This document shows positions 1,180-12,878 of a stretch of 64,000 bases of DNA, one piece after another. The first letter of the stretch is position 1; each line of letters starts with the position of its first letter. The position numbers and the translations under genes were made by a program. The notes below the pieces were generated by a model. That model was not told where the DNA came from and did no database searches. It was given only the letters and a program-made list of their open reading frames with translations. Source of the stretch: Euryarchaeota archaeon UBA487 (lineage in GTDB: Archaea; Thermoplasmatota; Poseidoniia; Poseidoniales; Thalassarchaeaceae); NCBI GenBank assembly GCA_002505695.1, contig DAVU01000014.1, forward strand, positions 9,432 through 73,431, read 5' to 3'.

Positions 1180-1233
1180 ATCATGAACTACGCACCCATA
1201 TGCTCATAGAGAGTCAGAAATTCCTTGGCACCA

Positions 1234-4200
1234 ATGAAGAGCAGGGGAGCGCTGCTAATCACGATCCTACTGTCTATGTCTGTATTCGGCGGAGTTGAAA
1301 TCAACGACGAGGACACTCTAGAAACTCCAACCGAACCGAGGCTAGTCGACCTTTCCGGACCTCTGAAAATTCACGATCTCGTCGAACCAGTGAGGTCTAT
1401 TGGCGAAGAGCGGGATCGCACATTGGCAGCATACACGCCCATAGGAACCTTCACACTGGAAACTTTCATTCCGAACCAAGAAATCCAACAATCTCTCGCA
1501 ACAGAACGGCCAGACCTAACTATGCTCATAATCAGCGATCGCTCCACTATGTGGGATGCAAGAGTCGCGATCGATGAGGTACCAGGGGTCCAGATAAGGA
1601 CCGCAGTTCCCCCATCTGGATTCCTCGTACAAGGTGAACCAAATTCGTTGACCCAGGCAGCCTCATTGGACGTTGTCGCTAGCTCCCACAAGGTCCCGGC
1701 TGCGCTTCTGGTCCATCCAACCATAGCTGAGGTAGAAGAGCTGACCATGATTGAGGTTCTAGGATGGAATACTGAGTCTGGGGAGAGGTCCGATCATTCA
1801 GCGCCGTTAGATTTAGGCGACCTTTCAGACATGAACTCACTCGGATTCGAGGATACCGGGTTAGTTGACGATGGTCGAAGATGGGGGTTTGCAAGCGAGG
1901 AAAATATCCCACAGCTTGCAATGAACCCAGCTGTTTCTTGGATTTCACCAATTAACGACATACGCCTATCCAATGATCAAGTCAGAGACCACACTGAATC
2001 CGAAGACGTCACGAACTGGTTCTCATCGACCTTGGATGGATCTGGCCAAATAATCGCCGTCGGGGACTCTGGAATCGACCATGATCACGGGGACTTTGGC
2101 TCAAGGATCATCTCAAGAACATCAGTCACCCCAGGTGACAGCTCCACTGCAGACGGGTCAGGACACGGTACACATGTTGCTTGTACAGCTGTTGGCTCGG
2201 GATACAGGAGCTCGGGTCAGTACGCAGGAGTCGCGCCAGAGGCCGAAATAGTCTTCCAGGCCATGGAAGATGATGATTCAGGAAACCTGTACAGCTACGG
2301 GATAGACACAATGCTTGTTCAGGCCTACAACGAAGCGGCTAGATTTCACACCAACAGTTGGGGCTCCGGCTCTGGATTTGGAAGTTACACCACATCAGCC
2401 GAGGACGCTGACGACAGAATAAGTACGTGGGACCAGTATTGGCAATATGAAGGTATGACAGTCCTTTTTTCAGCCGGGAATGAGGGCAGTAACGGAATAT
2501 CCCCTCCTGCAACCGCAAAGAACGTGATTGCCGTCGGAGCACATCAAAACCGATACAGCGGCGCCCCTGATGCCATGTATCCTTACAGCAGTGAAGGTCC
2601 AACTGACGATGGCCGTATCAAACCTGATGTGATCGCACCTGGGATGTACGTCCGATCATGTCAGGCACAGGAATCCGGTGGTTCGTCAGACCTCGGCCAG
2701 TGGTATGAGGAATCCAGCGGAACTTCTATGGCAACCCCTGCAGCAGCTGGAGCATCAATCCTAATCCGAGAATACCTGATGGAGGTCGCCGAAAGACCTG
2801 CCCCACAGGCCTCCCTGATCAAGGCAATGCTGATATTAGGAGCCGAGGACATCGGAACTCCGAATATCCCCAACAACGCAGAGGGATGGGGAAGAATAGA
2901 CCTAACGAATAGTCTGGTACCTGACTCAGATGTCGGAATATTCGTCGATGATCGTCATAGGCTAAGGAGCGGGGAGTATGACGATTACAGCTTCGATGTG
3001 ACCAGATCCGGCGAACCACTGAAGGTCGTTCTGGCATGGTCCGACTACCCAGGTTCGTCCTCTTCCACAGATCAATTGCGGAACGACCTCAACCTAGAGG
3101 TGATTTCGCCGGACGGATCTACAACATACATCGGAAATGTATTTTCCCAGGGACGCTCAGTGACAGGTGGCCAACCTGACTCGACGAATAACGTAGAAGT
3201 CGCTCTAATCGAGTCCGCGGGAACCGGCGTCTGGACAGTCAGAGTAAGCGACGTCTACCACTCCGGCGCTCGACAGTACCAGCCGTACTCAATTGCAATC
3301 AGAGGTGTTAACGTCAATGATCTGACTCCTGACCCCACTGTCGACCCTGACAGCTTCTCCCTCTCCACACCCATACCCCAGGTTGGAGAGGCCGTCACCG
3401 TCGGTGCCTCCATTGTGAACCTAGGCGCTGGTTCGGTTCCATCCCTGTCGATCACAGCCTCAGCCGCTGGACAACCACTAGGAGTCAGAACAATATCGAT
3501 GGCCCCGGGCGAATCCGTTCCAGTAGAGTGGGACTGGACCCCAACAGCATCTGGGAACATAGAAGTCACGATTGAGGTCGATCCGACAGACCAAGTAGAG
3601 GAGACGGCTGAGGACAATAACCGCTTGTCCTCTTTTGTCTTGGTTAGCGAGCCGGGCATCAGAGTTGACACAATGAACCCAAATCCTGTGATGACTGATC
3701 CAAGAGGCACCACCAGTTTCGACATCCAGTTGACAAATACAGCATTATTTCCAACCAACGCATCAATTTCAGCCTCCAGCGTGATCCGGCTTTCCGATGG
3801 CGCTGTTATGCCATGGTACAGTTCCTTCTCCATAACCCAAGTTCAACTGAATGCCTCAGAGACAGAACAACTGACCTTCGCCCTTACTCACCCAAACCCT
3901 CCAGAACCAGGAATCTACAGGGTTATTGTCACCGGTTTGGATACGGAGAATGACGTCACCAGCGAGCTAATCCTGAAGCTAACAGTGTCATCTTTCCCGG
4001 ACATTGAATTTAGAGTCCCGGGAGGGATTCTGGCGATTGACGCATTCGAACCCACCGAGGCATATTTGCAATTATCAAACGAAGGCAATGGTCCACAGAC
4101 CTATGACCTAGCCCTTGAGTCTCCCGCGGGTTGGAGGGCTACGTTGGATAATCTAGGCACTTTTGTAGACTCAACTCACGGCTCAACCGGCATATTAGGA

Positions 4201-5637
4201 CAAGGCAATACAAGACAAATAGACATCACACTAACCCCTCCATCCGTAGTGGTTTCTGCAGGCACCTTGATCAACGCTGAGCTCACTATATCAGCAAGGA
4301 CCACAAGTGACACATGGGTCCACCAAATCCCACTAATAGTCGCCGCAAAAGACGATGTCAGTTTAACGCCAAGCTCTGGAGGGATCGATTCGCAAGTCAG
4401 GCCAGACGACATACACGAGATCCCGATACAGATTGTAAATCAAGGAAACAGGGACATAACCCTCACTCCTCAAATCCTCTCACTACCTGGTGGTTGGAAT
4501 AGCCTATCCAACACCCAGCCAATCACGATAGAACAAGGGTCAACATCGATATGGTATTTGACCATACAGGGCAATGGCTTGGCAGCAAGCGGTCTCGCAA
4601 AGGTCAGATTTCTGACTCAGGATGGCTCCGCATTTTCGTGGAACAGAACAATAGAGGTGACCTCTGGCGCCGTGCCAATTGTCTCATTCAGGTCGATAGT
4701 GCTCGCTGATGGCTCGACATCACCAAGCCCGTTGGGGCTTGGGCCTTTGCCTGTTGCAACCCCGTTCGACCTATCTTGGACAGTATCCAATCAAGGTCAA
4801 GGATCTTGGTCTCCTGTGGCCAGCTTGGTTTCACAGGGGGATGGATGGAATATATCCTGCACCCCGGTGAGCCCTGTTCAGCCAGCTGCGTCCTCGGTAG
4901 CGTGGTGTTCCGTAATCATCCCTGAGTCTCAAGCCGGAAATGCAGAGGTTCCCTTGACACTGAGGCTTGAATCCGAAGGCCTCCTAGCTATCGATACTGT
5001 CTCAATATTAGTACAACAGACGTCCAAGATCTCATGGACAATGCAGGGTAACGCCCCCATCTTGAAATCAGGGGAAAGCACACTCATAACCCTTCAAGCG
5101 GAGAACCAAGGGAATACTCAGATCAACACTAAAATTATCGTAGAAACTCCTCCCAACGGATGGGATCACCAAGTATCTGGAAGTGAGATCCTCTCCCTGT
5201 CCCCGGGTGAGTCTAGGACCGTTGAGATCTACCTAACCGTCGGAGAATCACGAGGCCCGGTATTCATTGAACTCCAAGGAGGTACGCTAATCGATGGGTC
5301 AACTTTCCAATTGCCTCTACAGGTACGCGCCATTGACTCTCAGGGCATGATTTCGGCCTGGTTCATGCTCGCTGTGTTGATCGTGGTGGGCCTAGCTGGC
5401 AGCCTAGTTGTAGTGCAGTTCAGGAAGAGGAGGGGAGATGTCATGGATCGAACCGGAGTCGAAGAGGAGATACCCTGTTTCCTCTGTGACTCACCCATCG
5501 TCGTCGGGAATGCATTGGCGTGTGGGGAGTGCGGTGCAAGATATCACCGGGTGGGACAATCCGGTAGTTGCAACGTATCCGAGATGGAGGTATGCATCAA
5601 CTGCGGGGCTTCCCGGGACCTCCTAGTAAATGCCTAA
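1234..5637 (+). CDS. Membrane-anchored S8 (subtilisin-like) serine peptidase with CARDB/Ig-like repeats, C-terminal TM and cytoplasmic Cys/His zinc domain
   Basis: Triad motifs IAVGDSGID, GHGTHVA and GTSMATP; oxyanion Asn in FSAGNEG; signal peptide; CARDB-like IEVDPTDQVEETAEDNN; TM followed by RKRR; CFLC..CGECxxxxH..C..CINC. ATG at 1234 preferred over TTG at 1225. Confidence 0.93.
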   Translation: MKSRGALLITILLSMSVFGGVEINDEDTLETPTEPRLVDLSGPLKIHDLVEPVRSIGEERDRTLAAYTPIGTFTLETFIPNQEIQQSLATERPDLTMLIISDRSTMWDARVAIDEVPGVQIRTAVPPSGFLVQGEPNSLTQAASLDVVASSHKVPAALLVHPTIAEVEELTMIEVLGWNTESGERSDHSAPLDLGDLSDMNSLGFEDTGLVDDGRRWGFASEENIPQLAMNPAVSWISPINDIRLSNDQVRDHTESEDVTNWFSSTLDGSGQIIAVGDSGIDHDHGDFGSRIISRTSVTPGDSSTADGSGHGTHVACTAVGSGYRSSGQYAGVAPEAEIVFQAMEDDDSGNLYSYGIDTMLVQAYNEAARFHTNSWGSGSGFGSYTTSAEDADDRISTWDQYWQYEGMTVLFSAGNEGSNGISPPATAKNVIAVGAHQNRYSGAPDAMYPYSSEGPTDDGRIKPDVIAPGMYVRSCQAQESGGSSDLGQWYEESSGTSMATPAAAGASILIREYLMEVAERPAPQASLIKAMLILGAEDIGTPNIPNNAEGWGRIDLTNSLVPDSDVGIFVDDRHRLRSGEYDDYSFDVTRSGEPLKVVLAWSDYPGSSSSTDQLRNDLNLEVISPDGSTTYIGNVFSQGRSVTGGQPDSTNNVEVALIESAGTGVWTVRVSDVYHSGARQYQPYSIAIRGVNVNDLTPDPTVDPDSFSLSTPIPQVGEAVTVGASIVNLGAGSVPSLSITASAAGQPLGVRTISMAPGESVPVEWDWTPTASGNIEVTIEVDPTDQVEETAEDNNRLSSFVLVSEPGIRVDTMNPNPVMTDPRGTTSFDIQLTNTALFPTNASISASSVIRLSDGAVMPWYSSFSITQVQLNASETEQLTFALTHPNPPEPGIYRVIVTGLDTENDVTSELILKLTVSSFPDIEFRVPGGILAIDAFEPTEAYLQLSNEGNGPQTYDLALESPAGWRATLDNLGTFVDSTHGSTGILGQGNTRQIDITLTPPSVVVSAGTLINAELTISARTTSDTWVHQIPLIVAAKDDVSLTPSSGGIDSQVRPDDIHEIPIQIVNQGNRDITLTPQILSLPGGWNSLSNTQPITIEQGSTSIWYLTIQGNGLAASGLAKVRFLTQDGSAFSWNRTIEVTSGAVPIVSFRSIVLADGSTSPSPLGLGPLPVATPFDLSWTVSNQGQGSWSPVASLVSQGDGWNISCTPVSPVQPAASSVAWCSVIIPESQAGNAEVPLTLRLESEGLLAIDTVSILVQQTSKISWTMQGNAPILKSGESTLITLQAENQGNTQINTKIIVETPPNGWDHQVSGSEILSLSPGESRTVEIYLTVGESRGPVFIELQGGTLIDGSTFQLPLQVRAIDSQGMISAWFMLAVLIVVGLAGSLVVVQFRKRRGDVMDRTGVEEEIPCFLCDSPIVVGNALACGECGARYHRVGQSGSCNVSEMEVCINCGASRDLLVNA

Positions 5638-5702: not shown

Positions 5703-8384
5703 GTGAGACCCCGCTCAGTCACACTAGTCACGACTATCTTGCTAGTCGCAGCCCTCGCTCCAACGGTCGCAGCGGACGTTGATCCGCAACTGTCCACACC
5801 CATATCGGAGCTACAGGCCACAACTAGCGATCCCGCCGTTTATGAGATAACGATCCGCAACAATGGGGACGATGACATGACATATACGCTGCAGACACAA
5901 CAAGGAACGGGCTGTGGGGGCTTCACCTCAACAGTCGACTCTCCCTCCGGCAGTGTAAATTCCAATGGCGAGGAGCTGGTAGATTTGACAGTCCAAGTGG
6001 ACGACACAGCCGCTGGTGAATGCGAGACGACTCTGACCATTACAGCGACGGGTGGCACTCCACCAACACCACAATCAGACTCTCTGACAGTGACCACCAC
6101 TGCCGAGGATGGGGGCTTGTACTCAGTCGTCCTCACCACAGATGACCTGACCAAGGAGTATGACCTAGAAGGCGACACAATCGACTGGATCGTCAATGTG
6201 GAAAATAATGGAGATCAACAGGCAACGATACAGTTGGCAGTTGAGAATGACAGTGGCTGTGACTCAGATGACGACTCAGTTTCCGCAACGGTCAACCCTG
6301 CTACTGTAAGCCTAAATTCGGGTGATAACGAGGATGTTGATTTTGTGATCACTCTCGATGATGAGGGTGAAACAGATGCAGGCGATCATTGCTTTATCCT
6401 TAGGGCGACGGTGAACAACGATCCAAGTCCAGACCAGGCAGAGGACAATCTCACGTTGACTGGCATCGTCCCAGAAATAAGATCCTGTGAAGAGACGCTC
6501 GATTGGACATTTGTAAATCTACAGCCCGGACAGACCAGCACAGAGAACAACCTAGAGGTCACAAATACCGGAAACACCGCATGGACAGCATCAGTGCAAG
6601 CACAGAGTTCTGGAGGCGAAGATATATCCGGCTGGGTCTCGTTTGACAGCCCGACAAGCAAACTCCTCGCAGAACCCGGGAACAATGGCGATTCGTTCAC
6701 CTTTGGGTTCGACATCACCCCCGATTCGTCAGTGGAATCCGGTTCCAGCGTAGATATCAGGATCATGGCGAAGGCGGGCTCCTCGGTAGGATGCGAGGCC
6801 ATCGTCACTGTGAAAGTGGGGCAAATACACGCCGGAGATATTTCCCTTAACACTGGGACAATCTCTAACGTTGAGCCTGGTAGCCAGCCCCAGGTGACAA
6901 TATCACTAGAAAATACTGGGAATGGCGCAGACACATTCACATTGAACACTGACCCTCTCCCACCCGGATGGAGCGTTTCCTTCTCACCTCCATCACACAG
7001 CCTAAATGCCGCTCAGACCTCGAACAACGAGGCAACTTCCACTGCAGTCATCACGGTTCCGGATGATGCTCTCGCTGGCTCGACATCAATTAAATTCAAG
7101 ATTTCTGGGGGTGGGGGCCCCGATTCTCTTGATTCCGTAACTTTGACTGTAAACGTCAACCAAAGGCATGAGGTAGAGTTGGAATTCACATCCACCTCGC
7201 AAAACGGCCGCACGGACCAAATAGTCAGGTTCCCCTTCGTAGTGACAAACCACGGGAACGTAGAGGACACAATCAAGCTCCAAGTTTGTGATCCCGGCGA
7301 TCAAACTGGTTGTAATGCGCCTGAATGGGGTGCATCCTACTCGGATTCGAACGGAAATGGAATCAACCAGGTCAGTCTGGAGCCAGGCCAATCAAGAAAC
7401 CTGTATCTGGATGTCAACGTGGAGGGTGAGGAGAATGCCGACTCAGCCAAGATATTGGCTAGGGCGGCGGTGTTCGGAGCCGATGCTGACGCTAAGGAAA
7501 CCGTGACAGTGACGGTCTCGAATTACAATTATTCGTTTGAAATATCGCCATTGGAACCCGGCATGATGCCTGACCAAATAGATCTGACACTTCCACCAGG
7601 AGGTGAAACAACAGTTTCCTTCTATGTTGACAACACAGGGGACTACCCTGCCGGTGACAATCTTGAGATTGAGATCACCGGTCTTGAGGCACTCGTCATC
7701 AGAACAGTCAGTATCCAAGGCAACACCATAACAGCACCAGTACCAGTGGGCGCAGGGGAGAGAATACAAGTTGATGTGAGGCTTGAGGTGGTTCAAGGAT
7801 CAGCCAACGGTTTGAATGGACTAATGCAAATCAGCACTTTCTCGACATTGAATCCAAACGAAGCCTCTGCCATCGACATAGCGGTGGAGATCCGAACAAT
7901 TCACGATCTACGGATAACAATGGAAGAGGCGACTAAGCAAACTACAACATATCCTGACAAGGGCGAATACACCTTCTTTGTGACAAATAACGGCAACGTT
8001 GTTGAGGACGTCGTGGTTATTCCTACCGAGTCCCTGAGAGGGTGGTCTGTTGACATTTTGCCGGACAATTTTGACTTGGAACCAGGTCAAACCATGGAAA
8101 TAAGGGTGAACACCCTCCCACCAGCAGATCTCATTTCTGACGATGAATATCGGTTCACCATTGTCGTGCAACCAAAGGGCCTACCGGCTGCAGGGCAGCC
8201 ACTCGATTTAGTGACGGTGACGAACCTTCCTGCCGGCTTCCTGTCCCTGTCGGATACAGCAGAGCAGATCCTGATCATATCCCTCATCGGAATTGGGGTT
8301 CTGACGATCACGGTTCTAACTTTCAGATCGAGACGAGAAAACCAGCGAATATTAGAGGCGCTGAGCGATGAGCACAAGCTCTGA
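5703..8384 (+). CDS. Large cell-surface protein with tandem Ig-like (NEW3/COG1470-like) domains and C-terminal TM anchor
   Basis: GTG start preceded by AGGTGG; signal peptide; repeated V/I-x-N-x-G-(N)-x-x-D/E motifs (IRNNGDDD, VENNGDQQ, VTNTGNTA, LENTGNGAD, VTNHGNVED, VDNTGD, VTNNGNVVED); TM followed by RSRR. Confidence 0.85.
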   Translation: MRPRSVTLVTTILLVAALAPTVAADVDPQLSTPISELQATTSDPAVYEITIRNNGDDDMTYTLQTQQGTGCGGFTSTVDSPSGSVNSNGEELVDLTVQVDDTAAGECETTLTITATGGTPPTPQSDSLTVTTTAEDGGLYSVVLTTDDLTKEYDLEGDTIDWIVNVENNGDQQATIQLAVENDSGCDSDDDSVSATVNPATVSLNSGDNEDVDFVITLDDEGETDAGDHCFILRATVNNDPSPDQAEDNLTLTGIVPEIRSCEETLDWTFVNLQPGQTSTENNLEVTNTGNTAWTASVQAQSSGGEDISGWVSFDSPTSKLLAEPGNNGDSFTFGFDITPDSSVESGSSVDIRIMAKAGSSVGCEAIVTVKVGQIHAGDISLNTGTISNVEPGSQPQVTISLENTGNGADTFTLNTDPLPPGWSVSFSPPSHSLNAAQTSNNEATSTAVITVPDDALAGSTSIKFKISGGGGPDSLDSVTLTVNVNQRHEVELEFTSTSQNGRTDQIVRFPFVVTNHGNVEDTIKLQVCDPGDQTGCNAPEWGASYSDSNGNGINQVSLEPGQSRNLYLDVNVEGEENADSAKILARAAVFGADADAKETVTVTVSNYNYSFEISPLEPGMMPDQIDLTLPPGGETTVSFYVDNTGDYPAGDNLEIEITGLEALVIRTVSIQGNTITAPVPVGAGERIQVDVRLEVVQGSANGLNGLMQISTFSTLNPNEASAIDIAVEIRTIHDLRITMEEATKQTTTYPDKGEYTFFVTNNGNVVEDVVVIPTESLRGWSVDILPDNFDLEPGQTMEIRVNTLPPADLISDDEYRFTIVVQPKGLPAAGQPLDLVTVTNLPAGFLSLSDTAEQILIISLIGIGVLTITVLTFRSRRENQRILEALSDEHKL

Positions 8385-8452: not shown

Positions 8453-8914
8453 TTGGTGGTGGTGCTCATGGATACAGTCACGGAGGCGTATCTTGCATTC
8501 GCTATAATGACCCTCGTAGGCATCGGTTTTCCAGTTGGAGCATTTATCGCCTCCTACTTCCTTAGGCCGATCGAGGACCCCAATGACAGGACCAAAGTTC
8601 GATCAATACTTCTGCCTGGATATGACAGGGACCATACCCTGTACCCCAGGGCCGCCACAACCTACGAGTGCGGCGCAGAACCGCTAGGAGAAGCACACAT
8701 CAACTTCCACTTCCAATATTATTGGTATGCCATTATTTTCCTAGTCTTTGACATCGCATTCATGTTCCTTGCATTCGGCGGCATAGTGGCCATAGATTCA
8801 ACCTTAGATCAGTCTGAGGTTATTTCGGCGTTGGTGACAATGTCAATTTTCATGCTCCTCATGAGCCTGGGTGTTTGGCATGTTTTCAGGAAAAGAGGAA
8901 GAATCTACATTTGA
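8453..8914 (+). CDS. nuoA: Complex I-like oxidoreductase subunit A
   Basis: YECGAEP and YYWYAIIFLVFDI motifs; 3 TM; first gene of the nuo operon. Confidence 0.93.
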   Translation: MVVVLMDTVTEAYLAFAIMTLVGIGFPVGAFIASYFLRPIEDPNDRTKVRSILLPGYDRDHTLYPRAATTYECGAEPLGEAHINFHFQYYWYAIIFLVFDIAFMFLAFGGIVAIDSTLDQSEVISALVTMSIFMLLMSLGVWHVFRKRGRIYI

Positions 8915-8919
8915 GGTGG
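8913..8919 (+). promoter_or_regulatory. Shine-Dalgarno-like site upstream of nuoB (representative of recurring GAGGTG/GGAGG sites in the nuo operon)
   Basis: GAGGTGG before nuoB; similar AGGTGG (nuoC), GAGGTGA (nuoH), GAGGTA (nuoL) and GGAGG (nuoN) a few nt upstream of the starts. Confidence 0.7.
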
Positions 8920-8923
8920 ACCC

Positions 8924-9520
8924 ATGGCGGATGACAATCAGAACTTCTCAGTGTTCAACAGCAGAATTCTAGTCGATACCGTAGGTCACGTCACCGATGA
9001 AGCTCTGAAGGCCTCGAGAATAAAAGACGTAATCGGCGTGTTGGCCGGGAGACTCTTCAACTGGGGCCAGAGGAAATCGTTATTCCCACTCCACCTGGGA
9101 ATAAAGTGCTGCGCTCTGGAGATGGCCGCAGCCGGTGCCAGCCGATTCGATGCGGAGCGATTTGGAGTGTTTTTCAGATCAAGTCCTCGCCAATGCGACG
9201 TCTTGTTGGTTAACGGGCCCGTGAGCAAGAAATTCGCCGACCCCCTCGTTCGATTGTGGGAGCAAATGCCTGAACCCAAATGGTGCATCGCAATGGGGGA
9301 ATGCGCCATCTCAGGAGGGCCGTATTTCCAGTCATACAACATCTTGGAAGGCGTAGACACCGTGATACCGGTTGATGTTTACATTCCCGGCTGTCCCCCC
9401 AGGCCAGAAGCTTTGATAGATGGGTTTGCCAAACTCAGGCAGAAAATAATTAGGATCGGTGCTGTTCCAAGCGAGGACAGATCAGAGGTCGAAGTACCCC
9501 TGATACTAGGCGATGACTGA
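8924..9520 (+). CDS. nuoB: Complex I-like subunit B (N2 Fe-S cluster)
   Basis: GIKCCALEM, RSSPRQCD, EPKWCIAMGECAISGG, PVDVYIPGCPPRPE; SD GAGGTGG upstream. Confidence 0.96.
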   Translation: MADDNQNFSVFNSRILVDTVGHVTDEALKASRIKDVIGVLAGRLFNWGQRKSLFPLHLGIKCCALEMAAAGASRFDAERFGVFFRSSPRQCDVLLVNGPVSKKFADPLVRLWEQMPEPKWCIAMGECAISGGPYFQSYNILEGVDTVIPVDVYIPGCPPRPEALIDGFAKLRQKIIRIGAVPSEDRSEVEVPLILGDD

Positions 9521-9529
9521 CTTAGGTGG

Positions 9530-10198
9530 TTGCACATGGGAAAGAGAGTCAGCGCCGAGGCACAGAAGGAAGCCGTTTCGAAACTTCTGGAAGACGTGTC
9601 GTCCATAGAAGGGGTAGAGGGCGAAGTTCTGACTAGGACAAACGGCACCCAAGACCGAAACATCGCCCACATCACATGCCAACCGTCAGCATGGAGGGAC
9701 CTCGCTGAGACAATGAAATACGACCATCTCGTTGACCATTGCTCAATGATCACAGGGATTCACTGGCCCGACTCAAAAGAAAGAAACTGGGAACTGATCT
9801 ATCATTTCCTGAGAACTGGGGTTTTGGATCCTGAGACTACCGAAAATGGATCCTCGATCATTCCTAACATCACCGATACCAAAAAACTCAGTGGAAACAC
9901 CGTCCCCATAGAGATCCAAGTCAACGTTGCCATCCCCGAGACGAGAACACCATCAATTGCATCGGTCCAAGATATCTGGATTGGAGCAGACTGGAATGAG
10001 AAAGAAACATGGGATCTGGTAGGGATTGACTTTGCGGGTCACGAAGGCATGAGACGAGTACTGAATCCACATGAAACCCCCCCAGGTTATCATCCTCTAC
10101 AGAAACAGCACAAACTTCGATATCATGGATTCGAGGAAATGTACGATGATGCCCAGGGATTCCTGAGGAAAGCTCCAGATTCTGGACGAGTGAAGTGA
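9530..10198 (+). CDS. nuoC: Complex I-like subunit C
   Basis: WIGADWNEKETWDLVGIDFAGHEGMRRVL..GYHPLQK corresponds to the NuoC signature; position in operon. Confidence 0.9.
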   Translation: MHMGKRVSAEAQKEAVSKLLEDVSSIEGVEGEVLTRTNGTQDRNIAHITCQPSAWRDLAETMKYDHLVDHCSMITGIHWPDSKERNWELIYHFLRTGVLDPETTENGSSIIPNITDTKKLSGNTVPIEIQVNVAIPETRTPSIASVQDIWIGADWNEKETWDLVGIDFAGHEGMRRVLNPHETPPGYHPLQKQHKLRYHGFEEMYDDAQGFLRKAPDSGRVK

Positions 10199-10208
10199 GG
10201 GTGTAAAA

Positions 10209-11345
10209 ATGGCAGAGATGTGGATTTCTATGGGACCTCAACACCCAATGACCCATGGTCTATGGACTCTGAAGGTCAAGGTCGATGGTGAGACGGTTGT
10301 CGATACTGAGCCCGACCTGGGATACATCCACAGAGGCGTCGAAAAAATCTGTGAATCTCGTGATTTCACACAAATAACGACCTATTGCGACAGACTGTGC
10401 TATGCTAGCGCAAACACTTGGTCGCATGCCTATATCTATGCCGCAGAGGACCTCCTTGAGGTTGAGGTGCCAGAAAGGGCAGAGTACATCAGACTGATAG
10501 CGGTTGAGCTTCAGAGAATAGCGAGTCATCTGATGTGGTTGGGGGCATATGGCCCGGACATTGGGAATCTATCGATCATGGTATGGTGTCTGAGGGAACG
10601 CGAGATGATGATGGACCTCCTGCAAGAACTCGGAGGCTCGAGAATGCATTACAACTTCCCCAGAATTGGTGGTGTGAAGAGGGACTTGCCATATGGATTT
10701 GCACAGCGAGCCAGAGCAAAGTTGGACTTATTCAAGCAGAGAATACAAGAATATGAGTCACTCTTTGACGAGAGCACAGTATTCCTCGTTAGAACACAAG
10801 GAGTTGGATATACAAAAGCAGAAGAAATGGTGAACCACGGAGTCACTGGCCCCAATGTCAGGGCAGCCGGGGTCGATTACGACGTAAGATGGGCTCACCC
10901 ATATTCGGTATATTCCGAACTTGATTGGGCTCCAGCCGTTGAGAGGTCTTCCGTCAAAGGCGCGGATTGCTACGATCGATACAGAGTGAGGGTCACCGAG
11001 ATGGTCGAGTCTGCCAACATGGTGCTTGAAGCACTTGAAAGAATGCCCGGCGGTGCCGAGACTCACTACGAGCCAGGGGATCCAGCCATCATCGCCAAAG
11101 CGCCATCGAGGGCACCCGAGGGAACATTCGGCTCCCACCATTTTGAGGATAGCCGGGGGGAATCAATGTTCCACATTGTTGGAGGGGGAGACGGACGCGG
11201 CAAGAATCCATACCGTGTGTCCATCCGGTCTCCAATGTTCATAACTATCCCCTACGCGTCAAAATGCATGATCGGCTACAAGGTTGCCGACATACCAGCA
11301 ATTATGGGCTCATTCGATCCTTGCATTGGGGAAACAGACAGGTGA
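10209..11345 (+). CDS. nuoD: Complex I-like subunit D
   Basis: MGPQHPMTHG, GYIHRGVEK, DRLCY, ELQRIASHL, GETDR C-terminus. Confidence 0.96.
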   Translation: MAEMWISMGPQHPMTHGLWTLKVKVDGETVVDTEPDLGYIHRGVEKICESRDFTQITTYCDRLCYASANTWSHAYIYAAEDLLEVEVPERAEYIRLIAVELQRIASHLMWLGAYGPDIGNLSIMVWCLREREMMMDLLQELGGSRMHYNFPRIGGVKRDLPYGFAQRARAKLDLFKQRIQEYESLFDESTVFLVRTQGVGYTKAEEMVNHGVTGPNVRAAGVDYDVRWAHPYSVYSELDWAPAVERSSVKGADCYDRYRVRVTEMVESANMVLEALERMPGGAETHYEPGDPAIIAKAPSRAPEGTFGSHHFEDSRGESMFHIVGGGDGRGKNPYRVSIRSPMFITIPYASKCMIGYKVADIPAIMGSFDPCIGETDR

Positions 11346-11354
11346 GGTGACAAC

Positions 11355-12878
11355 ATGGCAAGCAGCGATTGGCTAGACATCAGAGGCTGGATGGATTCCA
11401 TCATTGGATGGAGTTTGGATAAGACCCATCAAATCCTACCATCATCCGACATAGGTCTTGGACCCCTTGGAACGATCAACATCCAAGATGGGTTCTCCTC
11501 TATACAGAGCGCTCTGCACATATTCATCTTCACCTCGGTGATGTGTACGGTAGTGTTCGCCACCATGATGATAACCCTAATTGTGGTTCCGTACATTGAA
11601 AGAAAATTCATTGGTAGATTAATGGATAGGTTTGGCAACACGATGAGTGCACGAAGCCTATGGGTCGGAGAGGGAGGAGTGACCGCAGGTGAATGGTGGT
11701 CGGGCCTCCCACTCGGATTGGGGGCGCCAATTGGAGCAATAAACAAGGCACTCAACAAGAATTTTGGAAACGACCATCATACAAAATCCGTCACCAGGGT
11801 AGGTGACAGGGGCTACCACGGGATCTGGTTCATGCTGCCAGGGTTCGTGGCCGCTGTCGCTGACTTCGTGAAATTCAACACAAAGGCACACATCGTCCCG
11901 GAAAAGGCCGACCGTCTCGTGTTTGAGGTAGCGCCTGTCATCATAATCTCGACCACCGTTATGGTCTACGCCTTCGTACCATTCGGACCACACATATGGG
12001 CTGCGAATCCCGATCTATCATTGATATTCATGATGGCAATTTTCGGAGTAGCCCCACTTGGCGTTTTCTTCGCAGGTTGGGCCTCCAACAACAAATACAC
12101 GTTAATCGGAGGCATGAGGTCCGCCGCCCAACTCACAGCATACGAAATTCCGTTGCTGGTAACCGTGCTGGGCATAGCCGTTCTGAGCGGCTCTTTCAAC
12201 ATCATCGAAATTGTCGACTTTCAGATTCAATCCTCGGACACATGGAATCTGTTCTTAATGCCACTTGGAGCCGTCTTGTTCATTGTGACAATGATTGCTG
12301 AAGTTGAGAGAATACCTTTCGACATGCCAGAAGCCGAAGCCGAACTCGTAGAGGGATGGTGGACAGAATATGGTGGGATTCGATGGGGTCTAATGTTCGC
12401 AGTAGAAATGATGCGTGCTTATGCCGCATGCATCCTATTCGCCCTGTTTTTCCTCGGAGGATGGGAACTACCTTTCCAGGACACACTCGTGGCACTCCCA
12501 TTAGTCGGAGGCGTCTTTTCAGCACTCGCAGCGGTCACACCAGGCATTGCCATACTTTTGATCAAAGCTTACCTCATGTTTGCACTCTTTGTCTGGGTCA
12601 GGGCCTCTCTCCACAGGATTCGCACTGACCAGATCCTCGAGTTCGGTTGGAGATACCTCCTTCCCCTCTCTATACTCAACCTCGGACTGGCCATGGTCAT
12701 GAGAGTGGCCCTATGGGACGGGTCATGGCCGATATGGCTAGCCCCCTTGATGACTACCGGGAGCATACTAGTATTCGTACTTCTGGCGATAGACGAGGAC
12801 AAGGAGGCCCTGAAGAATTCCAACAGGATTTACCATACACAGACCCTCGAGAAAGCATACCCTGGAAGGAGGGACTAG
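11355..12878 (+). CDS. nuoH: Complex I-like subunit H (extended)
   Basis: GWASNNKYTLIGGMRSAAQLTAYE, ERIPFDMPEAEAELVEG, RIRTDQ; SD GAGGTGA upstream. Confidence 0.95.
   Translation: MASSDWLDIRGWMDSIIGWSLDKTHQILPSSDIGLGPLGTINIQDGFSSIQSALHIFIFTSVMCTVVFATMMITLIVVPYIERKFIGRLMDRFGNTMSARSLWVGEGGVTAGEWWSGLPLGLGAPIGAINKALNKNFGNDHHTKSVTRVGDRGYHGIWFMLPGFVAAVADFVKFNTKAHIVPEKADRLVFEVAPVIIISTTVMVYAFVPFGPHIWAANPDLSLIFMMAIFGVAPLGVFFAGWASNNKYTLIGGMRSAAQLTAYEIPLLVTVLGIAVLSGSFNIIEIVDFQIQSSDTWNLFLMPLGAVLFIVTMIAEVERIPFDMPEAEAELVEGWWTEYGGIRWGLMFAVEMMRAYAACILFALFFLGGWELPFQDTLVALPLVGGVFSALAAVTPGIAILLIKAYLMFALFVWVRASLHRIRTDQILEFGWRYLLPLSILNLGLAMVMRVALWDGSWPIWLAPLMTTGSILVFVLLAIDEDKEALKNSNRIYHTQTLEKAYPGRRD

Follow-up and report, generated by a model that had tools for sequence, protein, structure and literature searches.

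Why would a very large protease that faces the outside of the cell end in a small zinc finger on the inside? The question is raised by a gene for a surface subtilase of the S8 family that lies in a 64,000-nucleotide stretch of the genome of Euryarchaeota archaeon UBA487 (order Poseidoniales; contig DAVU01000014.1, forward-strand positions 9,432 to 73,431). This whole stretch is hereafter called the window, and all coordinates below refer to it. We found that the last residues of the protease carry a strictly conserved C4HC3 motif, and we think it somewhat probable that the domain so marked, a putative divergent finger of the Prok-RING_1 clade, serves the surface subtilase as an interchangeable cytoplasmic docking handle.

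Marine Group II (MGII) archaea rank with the most abundant archaea of the plankton. Extracellular S8 peptidases are present in all MGII metagenome-assembled genomes and are held to be central to a protein-degrading lifestyle, and the passages on these peptidases in the same source do not mention the tail (PMC6864105). Orthologues of the window protease carry the public names "S8 family serine peptidase," "CARDB domain-containing protein," or "hypothetical," and their precomputed Pfam annotation lists no zinc domain, so that the finger is invisible in current annotation.

An invariant eight-ligand tail

From its only transmembrane helix onward, the protease reads ISAWFMLAVLIVVGLAGSLVVVQF-RKRR-GDVMDRTGVEEEIP-CFLC-DSPIVVGNALA-CGEC-GARY-H-RVGQSGS-C-NVSEMEV-CINC-GASRDLLVNA*. 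A domain of 57 amino acids (aa) lies within this tail at 5464 to 5634 on the plus strand, as do all features of the protease; an alignment of its orthologues (A1), an AlphaFold2 model, Foldseek, and hhalign, all taken up below, mark it as a probable cytoplasmic C4HC3 zinc finger of a divergent Prok-RING_1 type. Its eight putative metal ligands (5476 to 5604), identified from the translation and from their conservation in orthologues, are C1418, C1421, C1433, C1436, H1441, C1449, C1457, and C1460. Their arrangement, C-x2-C-x11-C-x2-C-x4-H-x7-C-x7-C-x2-C, agrees to the residue with what an earlier reading of the DNA letters (the sequence-only reading) had reported. The final 63 residues hold 7 of the 11 cysteines of the protein, and a relaxed regular expression of the motif matched once among the 7,475 six-frame open reading frames (ORFs) of the 1.27-Mb source genome.

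Conservation was assessed in 89 distinct full-length orthologues drawn from both large MGII families. The eight ligands and the G-A-R-Y that precedes the histidine were invariant (89 of 89), and the ligands were also complete in the 28 rows of A1. Per-column conservation in the orthologue alignment was 1.00 for seven of them and 0.96 for the sixth ligand, C6, the lower value arising because loop length shifts the alignment. Given the single match in the genome and the retention of eight ligands in 89 orthologues, the motif is not due to chance. C1 is followed by W or F (consensus fraction, 0.96), and exactly 10 residues separate C8 from the C-terminus in 81 of the 89. The mean consensus fraction of the finger domain was 0.65, compared with 0.39 in the linker, 0.41 in the transmembrane helix, and 0.83 in the catalytic domain; between 20 and 176 linker residues separate the helix from C1.

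The spacing between the histidine and C6 is variable: 7 residues in 63 orthologues, 6 in 17, 5 in 6, 4 in 1, and 2 in 2. A loop of 4 to 7 residues, longer than the canonical H-x2-C, is thus found in 87 of the 89, and the canonical spacing is kept by a single MGIIa genus (g17), to which both spacing-2 orthologues belong. The sequence-only reading had remarked that H-x7-C exceeds the canonical distance, and the range of 2 to 7 bears this out; the long spacing of the source protease is a lineage-specific loop expansion.

A profile built from A1 gave strong matches (E below 1e-12) in 33 of the 36 genomes sampled from one large family and in 58 of 58 from the other. One genus (g10) lacks the orthologue. 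The source genome contains one such match (E, 1.6e-22; second best, 0.06). Wherever the reading frame was complete, strong matches were always C-terminal on an S8 ORF of about 1500 aa.

Hydropathy analysis (Kyte-Doolittle) found only two hydrophobic segments in the protease: a signal-peptide-like segment, MKSRGALLITILLSMSVFGGVEI (1234 to 1302, with its peak at aa 8-26), and the transmembrane helix (aa 1376-1399; 5350 to 5421; hydropathy maximum, 2.67). The helix is followed by the RKRR positive-inside cluster (5422 to 5433), and there are five Lys/Arg in the 15 residues past the membrane versus one before it. Because the protein has a signal segment, a single transmembrane helix, and this charge bias, the tail is predicted to be cytoplasmic. 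The sequence-only reading had likewise placed it inside the cell, while allowing that the tail might turn out to be extracellular or its ligands to vary among orthologues; hydropathy and charge put the tail inside, and the ligands do not vary.

The ORF itself spans 1225 to 5637 and translates without an internal stop. It opens at a TTG (1225), from which the 1470 aa given in the sequence-only reading are counted; translation more probably begins at ATG 1234 (MKSRG...), for a product of 1467 aa that matches the database orthologue P0003. On the evidence of its translation and Pfam matches, this gene (1234 to 5637) encodes an S8 subtilase with a predicted cytoplasmic zinc tail, and orthologues were found in 41 of 41 related genomes. 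The Peptidase_S8 catalytic domain (2038 to 2892; aa 272-556; E, 1e-43) has an intact catalytic triad and retains D281, H317, N377, and S501, with triad conservation of 0.99 to 1.00 across the 89 orthologues. It is followed by a long Ig-like stalk (aa 557-1370) that includes a CARDB domain (3340 to 3630; aa 706-802; E, 2e-19) and, as the final ectodomain module ahead of the membrane, an NPCBM_assoc/NEW3 Ig-like domain (5065 to 5247; aa 1281-1341; E, 3e-9). The Pfam scan also gave a marginal P-domain match.

Kinship with RING- and PHD-like fingers

Direct comparisons with curated families gave matches below threshold. Prok-RING_1 (PF14446) scored 19.4 to 19.9 bits on the window tail alone and 11.9 bits in the whole protein, short of the Pfam cut-off of 29.1. 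The double zinc ribbon family DZR (PF12773) scored 19.5 to 20.6 bits, under its cut-off of 27.3, and matched 25 of the 28 members of A1, always below threshold; the fold matches described below are to RINGs rather than ribbons. The C-x2-C-x4-H of PHD (PF00628), with Y or F before the histidine, is present in the tail, and only 6 of the 28 members matched this model (best E, 0.015, below the cut-off); C1_1 matched 8 of the 28, likewise sub-threshold. A phmmer search with the tail against 1.84 billion representative sequences returned nothing except fragments of the same protein family.

The A1 profile also found weaker full-length matches in other Thermoplasmatota genomes, and these have the canonical form, C-x2-C-x(12-14)-C-x2-C-x4-H-x2-C-x(6-8)-C-x2-C. 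Three such domains from genomes G174 and G180 scored 48.8 (protein L136), 32.2, and 28.3 bits against Prok-RING_1, so that two exceed 29.1. When A1 was compared by hhalign with an alignment of these Thermoplasmatota domains (A2), the probability was 98.6% (E, 8e-16) and the extra residues of the MGII finger fell as an insertion between the histidine and C6; the test is partly circular, because A2 was built from hits of the A1 profile.

The predicted structure is consistent with this kinship. An AlphaFold2 model of the tail built on A1 reached a predicted local distance difference test (pLDDT) score of 89. Its Foldseek matches in the PDB were mainly RING domains (Rad18, RING1B/BMI1, Bre1, and IDOL), with template modeling (TM) scores of 0.55 to 0.65, and the best match in the viral library BFVD was also a RING (TM score, 0.67; root mean square deviation, 2.5 Å; 58 columns). 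In a sequence-profile search of the PDB, the best match was the C1 domain of ARHGEF2 (E, 0.004), and the RING-CH finger of K3 was matched at an E value of 0.34.

From these sequence comparisons and models, we conclude that the tail is a divergent branch of the Prok-RING_1/PHD-like binuclear treble-clef fingers that falls outside formal Pfam membership. The relation to PHD and RING fingers of C4HC3 type that the sequence-only reading had named is therefore upheld by the hhalign result and by the preponderance of RING domains among the Foldseek matches. Of the profile comparison that it had suggested, the kinship with Prok-RING_1 emerged at the profile-profile level, and the cut-offs of both Prok-RING_1 and PHD were not reached.

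The nearest known family is Prok-RING_1, prokaryotic RING finger family 1 (Burroughs, Iyer & Aravind 2011, cited in PMC4506424). The tail shares with it the C4HC3 order, the C-x2-C-x4-H core, the aromatic residue before the histidine, and a RING-like predicted fold. It differs in scoring 19 to 23 bits against a cut-off of 29.1, in its expanded loop from the histidine to C6, in a neighborhood without ubiquitin-like (Ubl), E2, or JAB genes, and in its host, an extracellular subtilase of about 1500 aa. The RING-CH (RINGv) fingers of MARCH proteins and of K3 of Kaposi's sarcoma-associated herpesvirus (KSHV; PDB 1vyx) likewise have C4HC3 ligands and occur on membrane proteins, and positions 3-46 of the tail profile align with residues 7-54 of the K3 chain, nearly end to end. 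That match is nonsignificant, however, and the MARCH finger is N-terminal, has C-x-C and H-x2-C spacings, and works with E2s. Another comparison is with the prokaryotic B-box, AN1, and LIM treble-clefs that Burroughs et al. (2011, as summarized in PMC4506424) reportedly found partnered with membrane-associated peptidases, and for which a peptide- or protein-binding role was reportedly proposed. These resemble the tail in joining a small cytoplasmic treble-clef zinc domain to a membrane-bound peptidase, but they belong to other treble-clef clades and their peptidases reportedly sit at or in the membrane, whereas here the peptidase lies far outside and the finger is also found on nonpeptidases.

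We found no relatives of the finger on viral contigs, and hence no phage-borne copies or decoys. Half-motif matches (CxxC...CPxCGAR) in Poseidoniales ORFs of 400 to 570 aa were set aside as ordinary N-terminal zinc ribbons of cytoplasmic proteins that are unrelated to the finger.

Tail modules on surface proteins

The sequence-only reading had suggested looking for the same tail on other surface proteins of the lineage, and it is indeed present on several. Canonical finger tails were found in genomes G059, G122, G174, G090, and G180. In two other Poseidoniales genera, a canonical C4HC3 finger ends CARDB/Ig-repeat surface proteins of 1354 to 1451 aa, which have a signal peptide, a transmembrane helix, and a long Q/P-rich linker and are noncatalytic; a region search with the tail of one of them (L153) returned only the self-match. 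Elsewhere in Thermoplasmatota, the finger forms the C-terminus of a secreted M14 carboxypeptidase that has a transmembrane helix as well as PKD/Ig repeats, and soluble proteins carry it in one or two copies. The coiled-coil-rich proteins L136 and L137 (G174 and G090), each of about 1600 aa, show no evident transmembrane helix and have a CARDB-like segment followed by the finger at the end. On a 1.9-kb contig (G122:C445), the TSP3/Big_7 surface protein L142 continues past its transmembrane helix with a C4HC3 finger and then a JAB/MPN domain that keeps the HSHPxxxxxxSxxD motif, a fusion of a RING-like finger with an isopeptidase in a cytoplasmic tail.

The tail of the protease can also be replaced. 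In a sister clade of the same genus, comprising at least five species, the ectodomain is 70 to 72% identical to that of the source protease and the tail is an unrelated three-helix module (consensus, ...DRxAAIxWAKxAIxxGxSEESVSMQLQSTGWSAxQSKAIIDLSKR; AlphaFold2 pLDDT, 92; orthologues L004-L006 and L008-L010). In a tree of the ectodomain, the orthologues with this tail form one clade (100/100), sister to the clade of the source protease. Because the RING-like tail occurs on either side of the MGIIa/MGIIb split, the finger is ancestral and was later replaced. A second replacement, in another genus, is seen in the orthologue of genome G018 (L016), which ends in a PGWLWD(x5-6)W(I/V)P module.

Neither replacement is peculiar to the protease. 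The three-helix module also ends transmembrane-anchored surface proteins of both MGIIb and MGIIa, among them an 846-aa TSP3-like protein and a 2125-aa MGIIa ORF (L159, L160, and L161), and the PGWLWD module ends an unrelated 1439-aa surface protein that the source genome encodes on the minus strand of contig C14, outside the window. The three-helix module had no match in Pfam, a PDB sequence search, or Foldseek, and a candidate identity as a ubiquitin-binding UBA/CUE domain was rejected on these empty results.

About 45 ORFs of at least 500 aa in the source genome (for example, C9 plus strand, 1567 aa; C14 plus strand, 680 aa; C19 plus strand, 646 aa) combine a single C-terminal transmembrane helix with a cytoplasmic tail. 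In three of these ORFs the tail finishes with simple C4 zinc ribbons, of which one ORF has two, and most surface proteins of the genome lack any folded tail. The remaining ORFs of this set include some with acidic or coiled tails. The finger is thus one of several interchangeable cytoplasmic tail modules.

This distribution bears directly on function. The sequence-only reading had proposed that the finger could couple proteolysis outside the cell to a signaling or turnover step inside it. We found no support for such coupling: the same finger ends CARDB and M14 proteins, and it has been swapped while the protease ectodomain was conserved, so that it is not tied to proteolysis, and no E2 was detected in the five genomes searched.

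Possible roles of the finger and its gene neighborhood

The docking handle that we favor draws on the motif and its conservation, the predicted topology, the homology and predicted fold, the modular distribution, and the replacements. The protease would be exported by means of its signal peptide and anchored as a type I membrane protein, with the catalytic domain and the Ig-like stalk outside and one helix across the membrane. In the cytoplasm, the finger would fold around two zinc ions at the predicted sites and, held on a flexible tether, would expose an invariant surface made up of the G-A-R-Y of the central hairpin and the W/F after C1, to which a conserved cytoplasmic or cortical partner would bind. 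Such a partner might tie the surface enzyme down for placement, clustering, assembly, recycling, or quality control.

The finger might instead be a structural cap, a stable zinc knot, possibly made of two ribbons, that fixes topology, stabilizes the C-terminus, or self-associates with no separate partner. The sub-threshold double-zinc-ribbon matches in 25 of the 28 members of A1, the rubredoxin-like structures among the Foldseek matches, the simple C4 ribbons at the ends of other surface proteins of the same genome, and the fact that unrelated small folded modules can take the place of the tail are all in keeping with this idea. We nevertheless consider it unlikely, as a cap would have no need of surface residues that stay invariant in two families (G-A-R-Y and the Trp/Phe after C1) or of a C-terminus fixed at 10 residues, most surface proteins of the source genome lack a folded tail altogether, and a linker of 20 to 176 aa suggests a tethered binding module.

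Alternatively, the finger could be an E3-like component that recruits a Ubl system (E1/SAMP, perhaps with an unrecognized E2) and marks the protease or its neighbors for turnover, in the manner of eukaryotic ectodomain-TM-RING ligases. Its fold and ligand order are RING/PHD-like, and because surface protein L142 of another Thermoplasmatota genome (above) joins such a finger to a JAB/MPN isopeptidase domain in its tail, we retain this as a minority view, improbable as it seems to us. In canonical RING-E2 interfaces of the c-Cbl/UbcH7 type, a hydrophobic contact lies two residues after C1 and a Pro follows C7. In the MGII orthologues, the position two after C1 is variable (38% consensus; L/I/V in MGIIb and S/T/A in MGIIa), and the residue after C7 is I, V, L, or T rather than Pro. 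Pfam searches for Ubl-system components covered the source genome and four Poseidoniales genomes that are 91 to 98% complete. A ThiF-type E1, an enzyme common to most archaea, was present in all five, together with a weak Prok-JAB match. JAB (PF01398) had no match in the five genomes, with a positive control in Haloferax. The four E2 models (UQ_con and Prok-E2_A/B/D) had no match in them either, a negative that is weak because three of these models drew no match in the controls either, and Prok-E2_C/E were unsearched. The conserved neighborhood of the protease gene contains no Ubl-system genes, its members being surface proteins and the nuo operon. The swap of the finger for a helical tail with no UBA-like or otherwise recognizable fold further argues against an indispensable enzymatic step, and the finger is probably not an E2-dependent ubiquitin-type ligase.

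Two known systems set this alternative in context. An archaeal E1/E2/RING cascade does exist in Caldiarchaeum subterraneum (PMC5654768), whose RING protein resembles the Poseidoniales finger, by description only, in being an archaeal RING-type finger; it is small and soluble, is encoded beside Ub, E1, E2, and Rpn11, and has demonstrated activity, whereas the Poseidoniales finger is the tail of a surface protease without such an operon (PMC5654768, PMC3082918). The nearest known architecture is that of the eukaryotic PA-TM-RING ligases, such as RNF13 and GRAIL/RNF128, which share the layout of the protease, with a signal peptide, an outside or luminal domain, one transmembrane helix, and a cytoplasmic RING-type finger (PMC4021871). 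Their PA domain is noncatalytic, their finger is a RING-H2 (C3H2C3), and they are proven E2-dependent E3s (PMC4021871). The protease, in contrast, has an S8 ectodomain that appears active from its catalytic residues, no PA domain reported by Pfam, a C4HC3 finger, and no E2 found to go with it. We regard the resemblance as an analogy only, with nothing that points to common descent of the architecture.

Binding of the finger to the inner leaflet or to a lipid head group, as in C1, FYVE, and some PHD domains, so as to clamp the anchor or sense membrane state, appears quite improbable. The top PDB profile match was the C1 domain of ARHGEF2 and C1_1 matched 8 of the 28 members, and binding at an interface would be in keeping with the conserved Arg and aromatic residues. 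All C1 scores fell under the curated cut-offs, however, the fold matches RING rather than C1 or FYVE, and the long low-complexity linkers of many orthologues and of the CARDB proteins are unfit for an obligatory membrane-proximal clamp. Least probable is a membrane-tethered regulator whose tail is freed by regulated proteolysis to act on transcription or nucleic acid: nucleic-acid binding is common among zinc fingers and, by the title of a study listed in the references of PMC4021871, the eukaryotic PA-TM-RING protein RNF13 sheds its RING domain into the cytoplasm proteolytically, but the 57-aa tail has no evident basic surface (3 Arg, 0 Lys, and 6 Asp/Glu), similarity to TFIIB-type or other DNA-binding ribbons did not rise above noise in the PDB profile search and Pfam scans, and a conserved cleavage motif was not seen.

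Several points weigh against the docking handle itself. Prok-RING_1 did not exceed its cut-off in any of 61 Poseidoniales genomes, the best score being 23.4 bits, on the genus with H-x2-C spacing, and the hhalign comparison is, as noted, partly circular. The Foldseek matches to the tail model reach probabilities of up to 1.0 with E values of 0.04 or greater throughout, weak because the domain is short, and rubredoxins form a second theme among them. The E2 negative is weak, and a system of the Ubl type is suggested by the RING-JAB fusion of the other lineage, together with the family description of Prok-RING_1, which records genomic association with Ubl, E1, E2, or JAB genes. A catalytic or ligand-binding role, rather than plain docking, might also account for the strict invariance of GARYH. 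Finally, we infer that the finger binds zinc, that its ligands pair in a cross-brace, that it has a partner, and what role it plays.

The finger offers a way into how archaea with no wall or a light one position their very large surface enzymes, gather them in clusters, or recycle them, and a partner, if one is found, would connect the cytoplasm of archaea with their cell surface in a new way. The finger also adds a membrane-tethered branch, apparently without E2, to the pre-eukaryotic history of RING-type fingers. A bolder extension, which we offer as speculation and consider doubtful, is a "tail code" in Poseidoniales and maybe in Thermoplasmatota at large. Giant single-pass surface proteins, dozens of them, would share a small set of interchangeable cytoplasmic modules (the RING-like finger, the three-helix TGWS module, PGWLWD, and C4 ribbons), each of which would dock to a cortical scaffold or to a sorting or turnover machine. 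In that case the finger would serve as the receptor end of an undescribed archaeal outside-in or inside-out linkage comparable to integrin-type anchoring, or else as a Ubl/SAMP ligase that works without E2 and governs the surface proteome.

The protease gene is flanked by two further genes for surface proteins, both on the plus strand. Upstream (625 to 1179) lies a gene whose 184-aa product has an acidic N-terminus, a single transmembrane helix, a beta-rich ectodomain, and no Pfam match, and was matched by tblastn in 104 of 135 orthologous loci; the N-terminus of this small protein lies on the inside. Downstream (5703 to 8384) is a gene for an 893-aa Ig-repeat surface protein with a C-terminal transmembrane anchor, found in 113 of the 135 loci and directly following the tail wherever positions are listed. 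Because the two neighbors recur at 104 and 113 of the 135 loci, the genes for the small transmembrane protein, the protease, and the 893-aa protein constitute a surface cassette of three genes that both MGII families conserve.

Directly downstream of the cassette are nuoA-B-C-D-H (8453 to 12878), and nuoA is near the cassette at 66 loci. At the other end of the locus, the window contains a 187-aa ORF (62 to 625) without a Pfam match, conserved at only 19 checked loci, whose C-terminus, VIPEPMTSGLTTIAMTLIGGLL, combines a PEP motif with a hydrophobic end and is reminiscent of PEP-CTERM/archaeosortase sorting signals.

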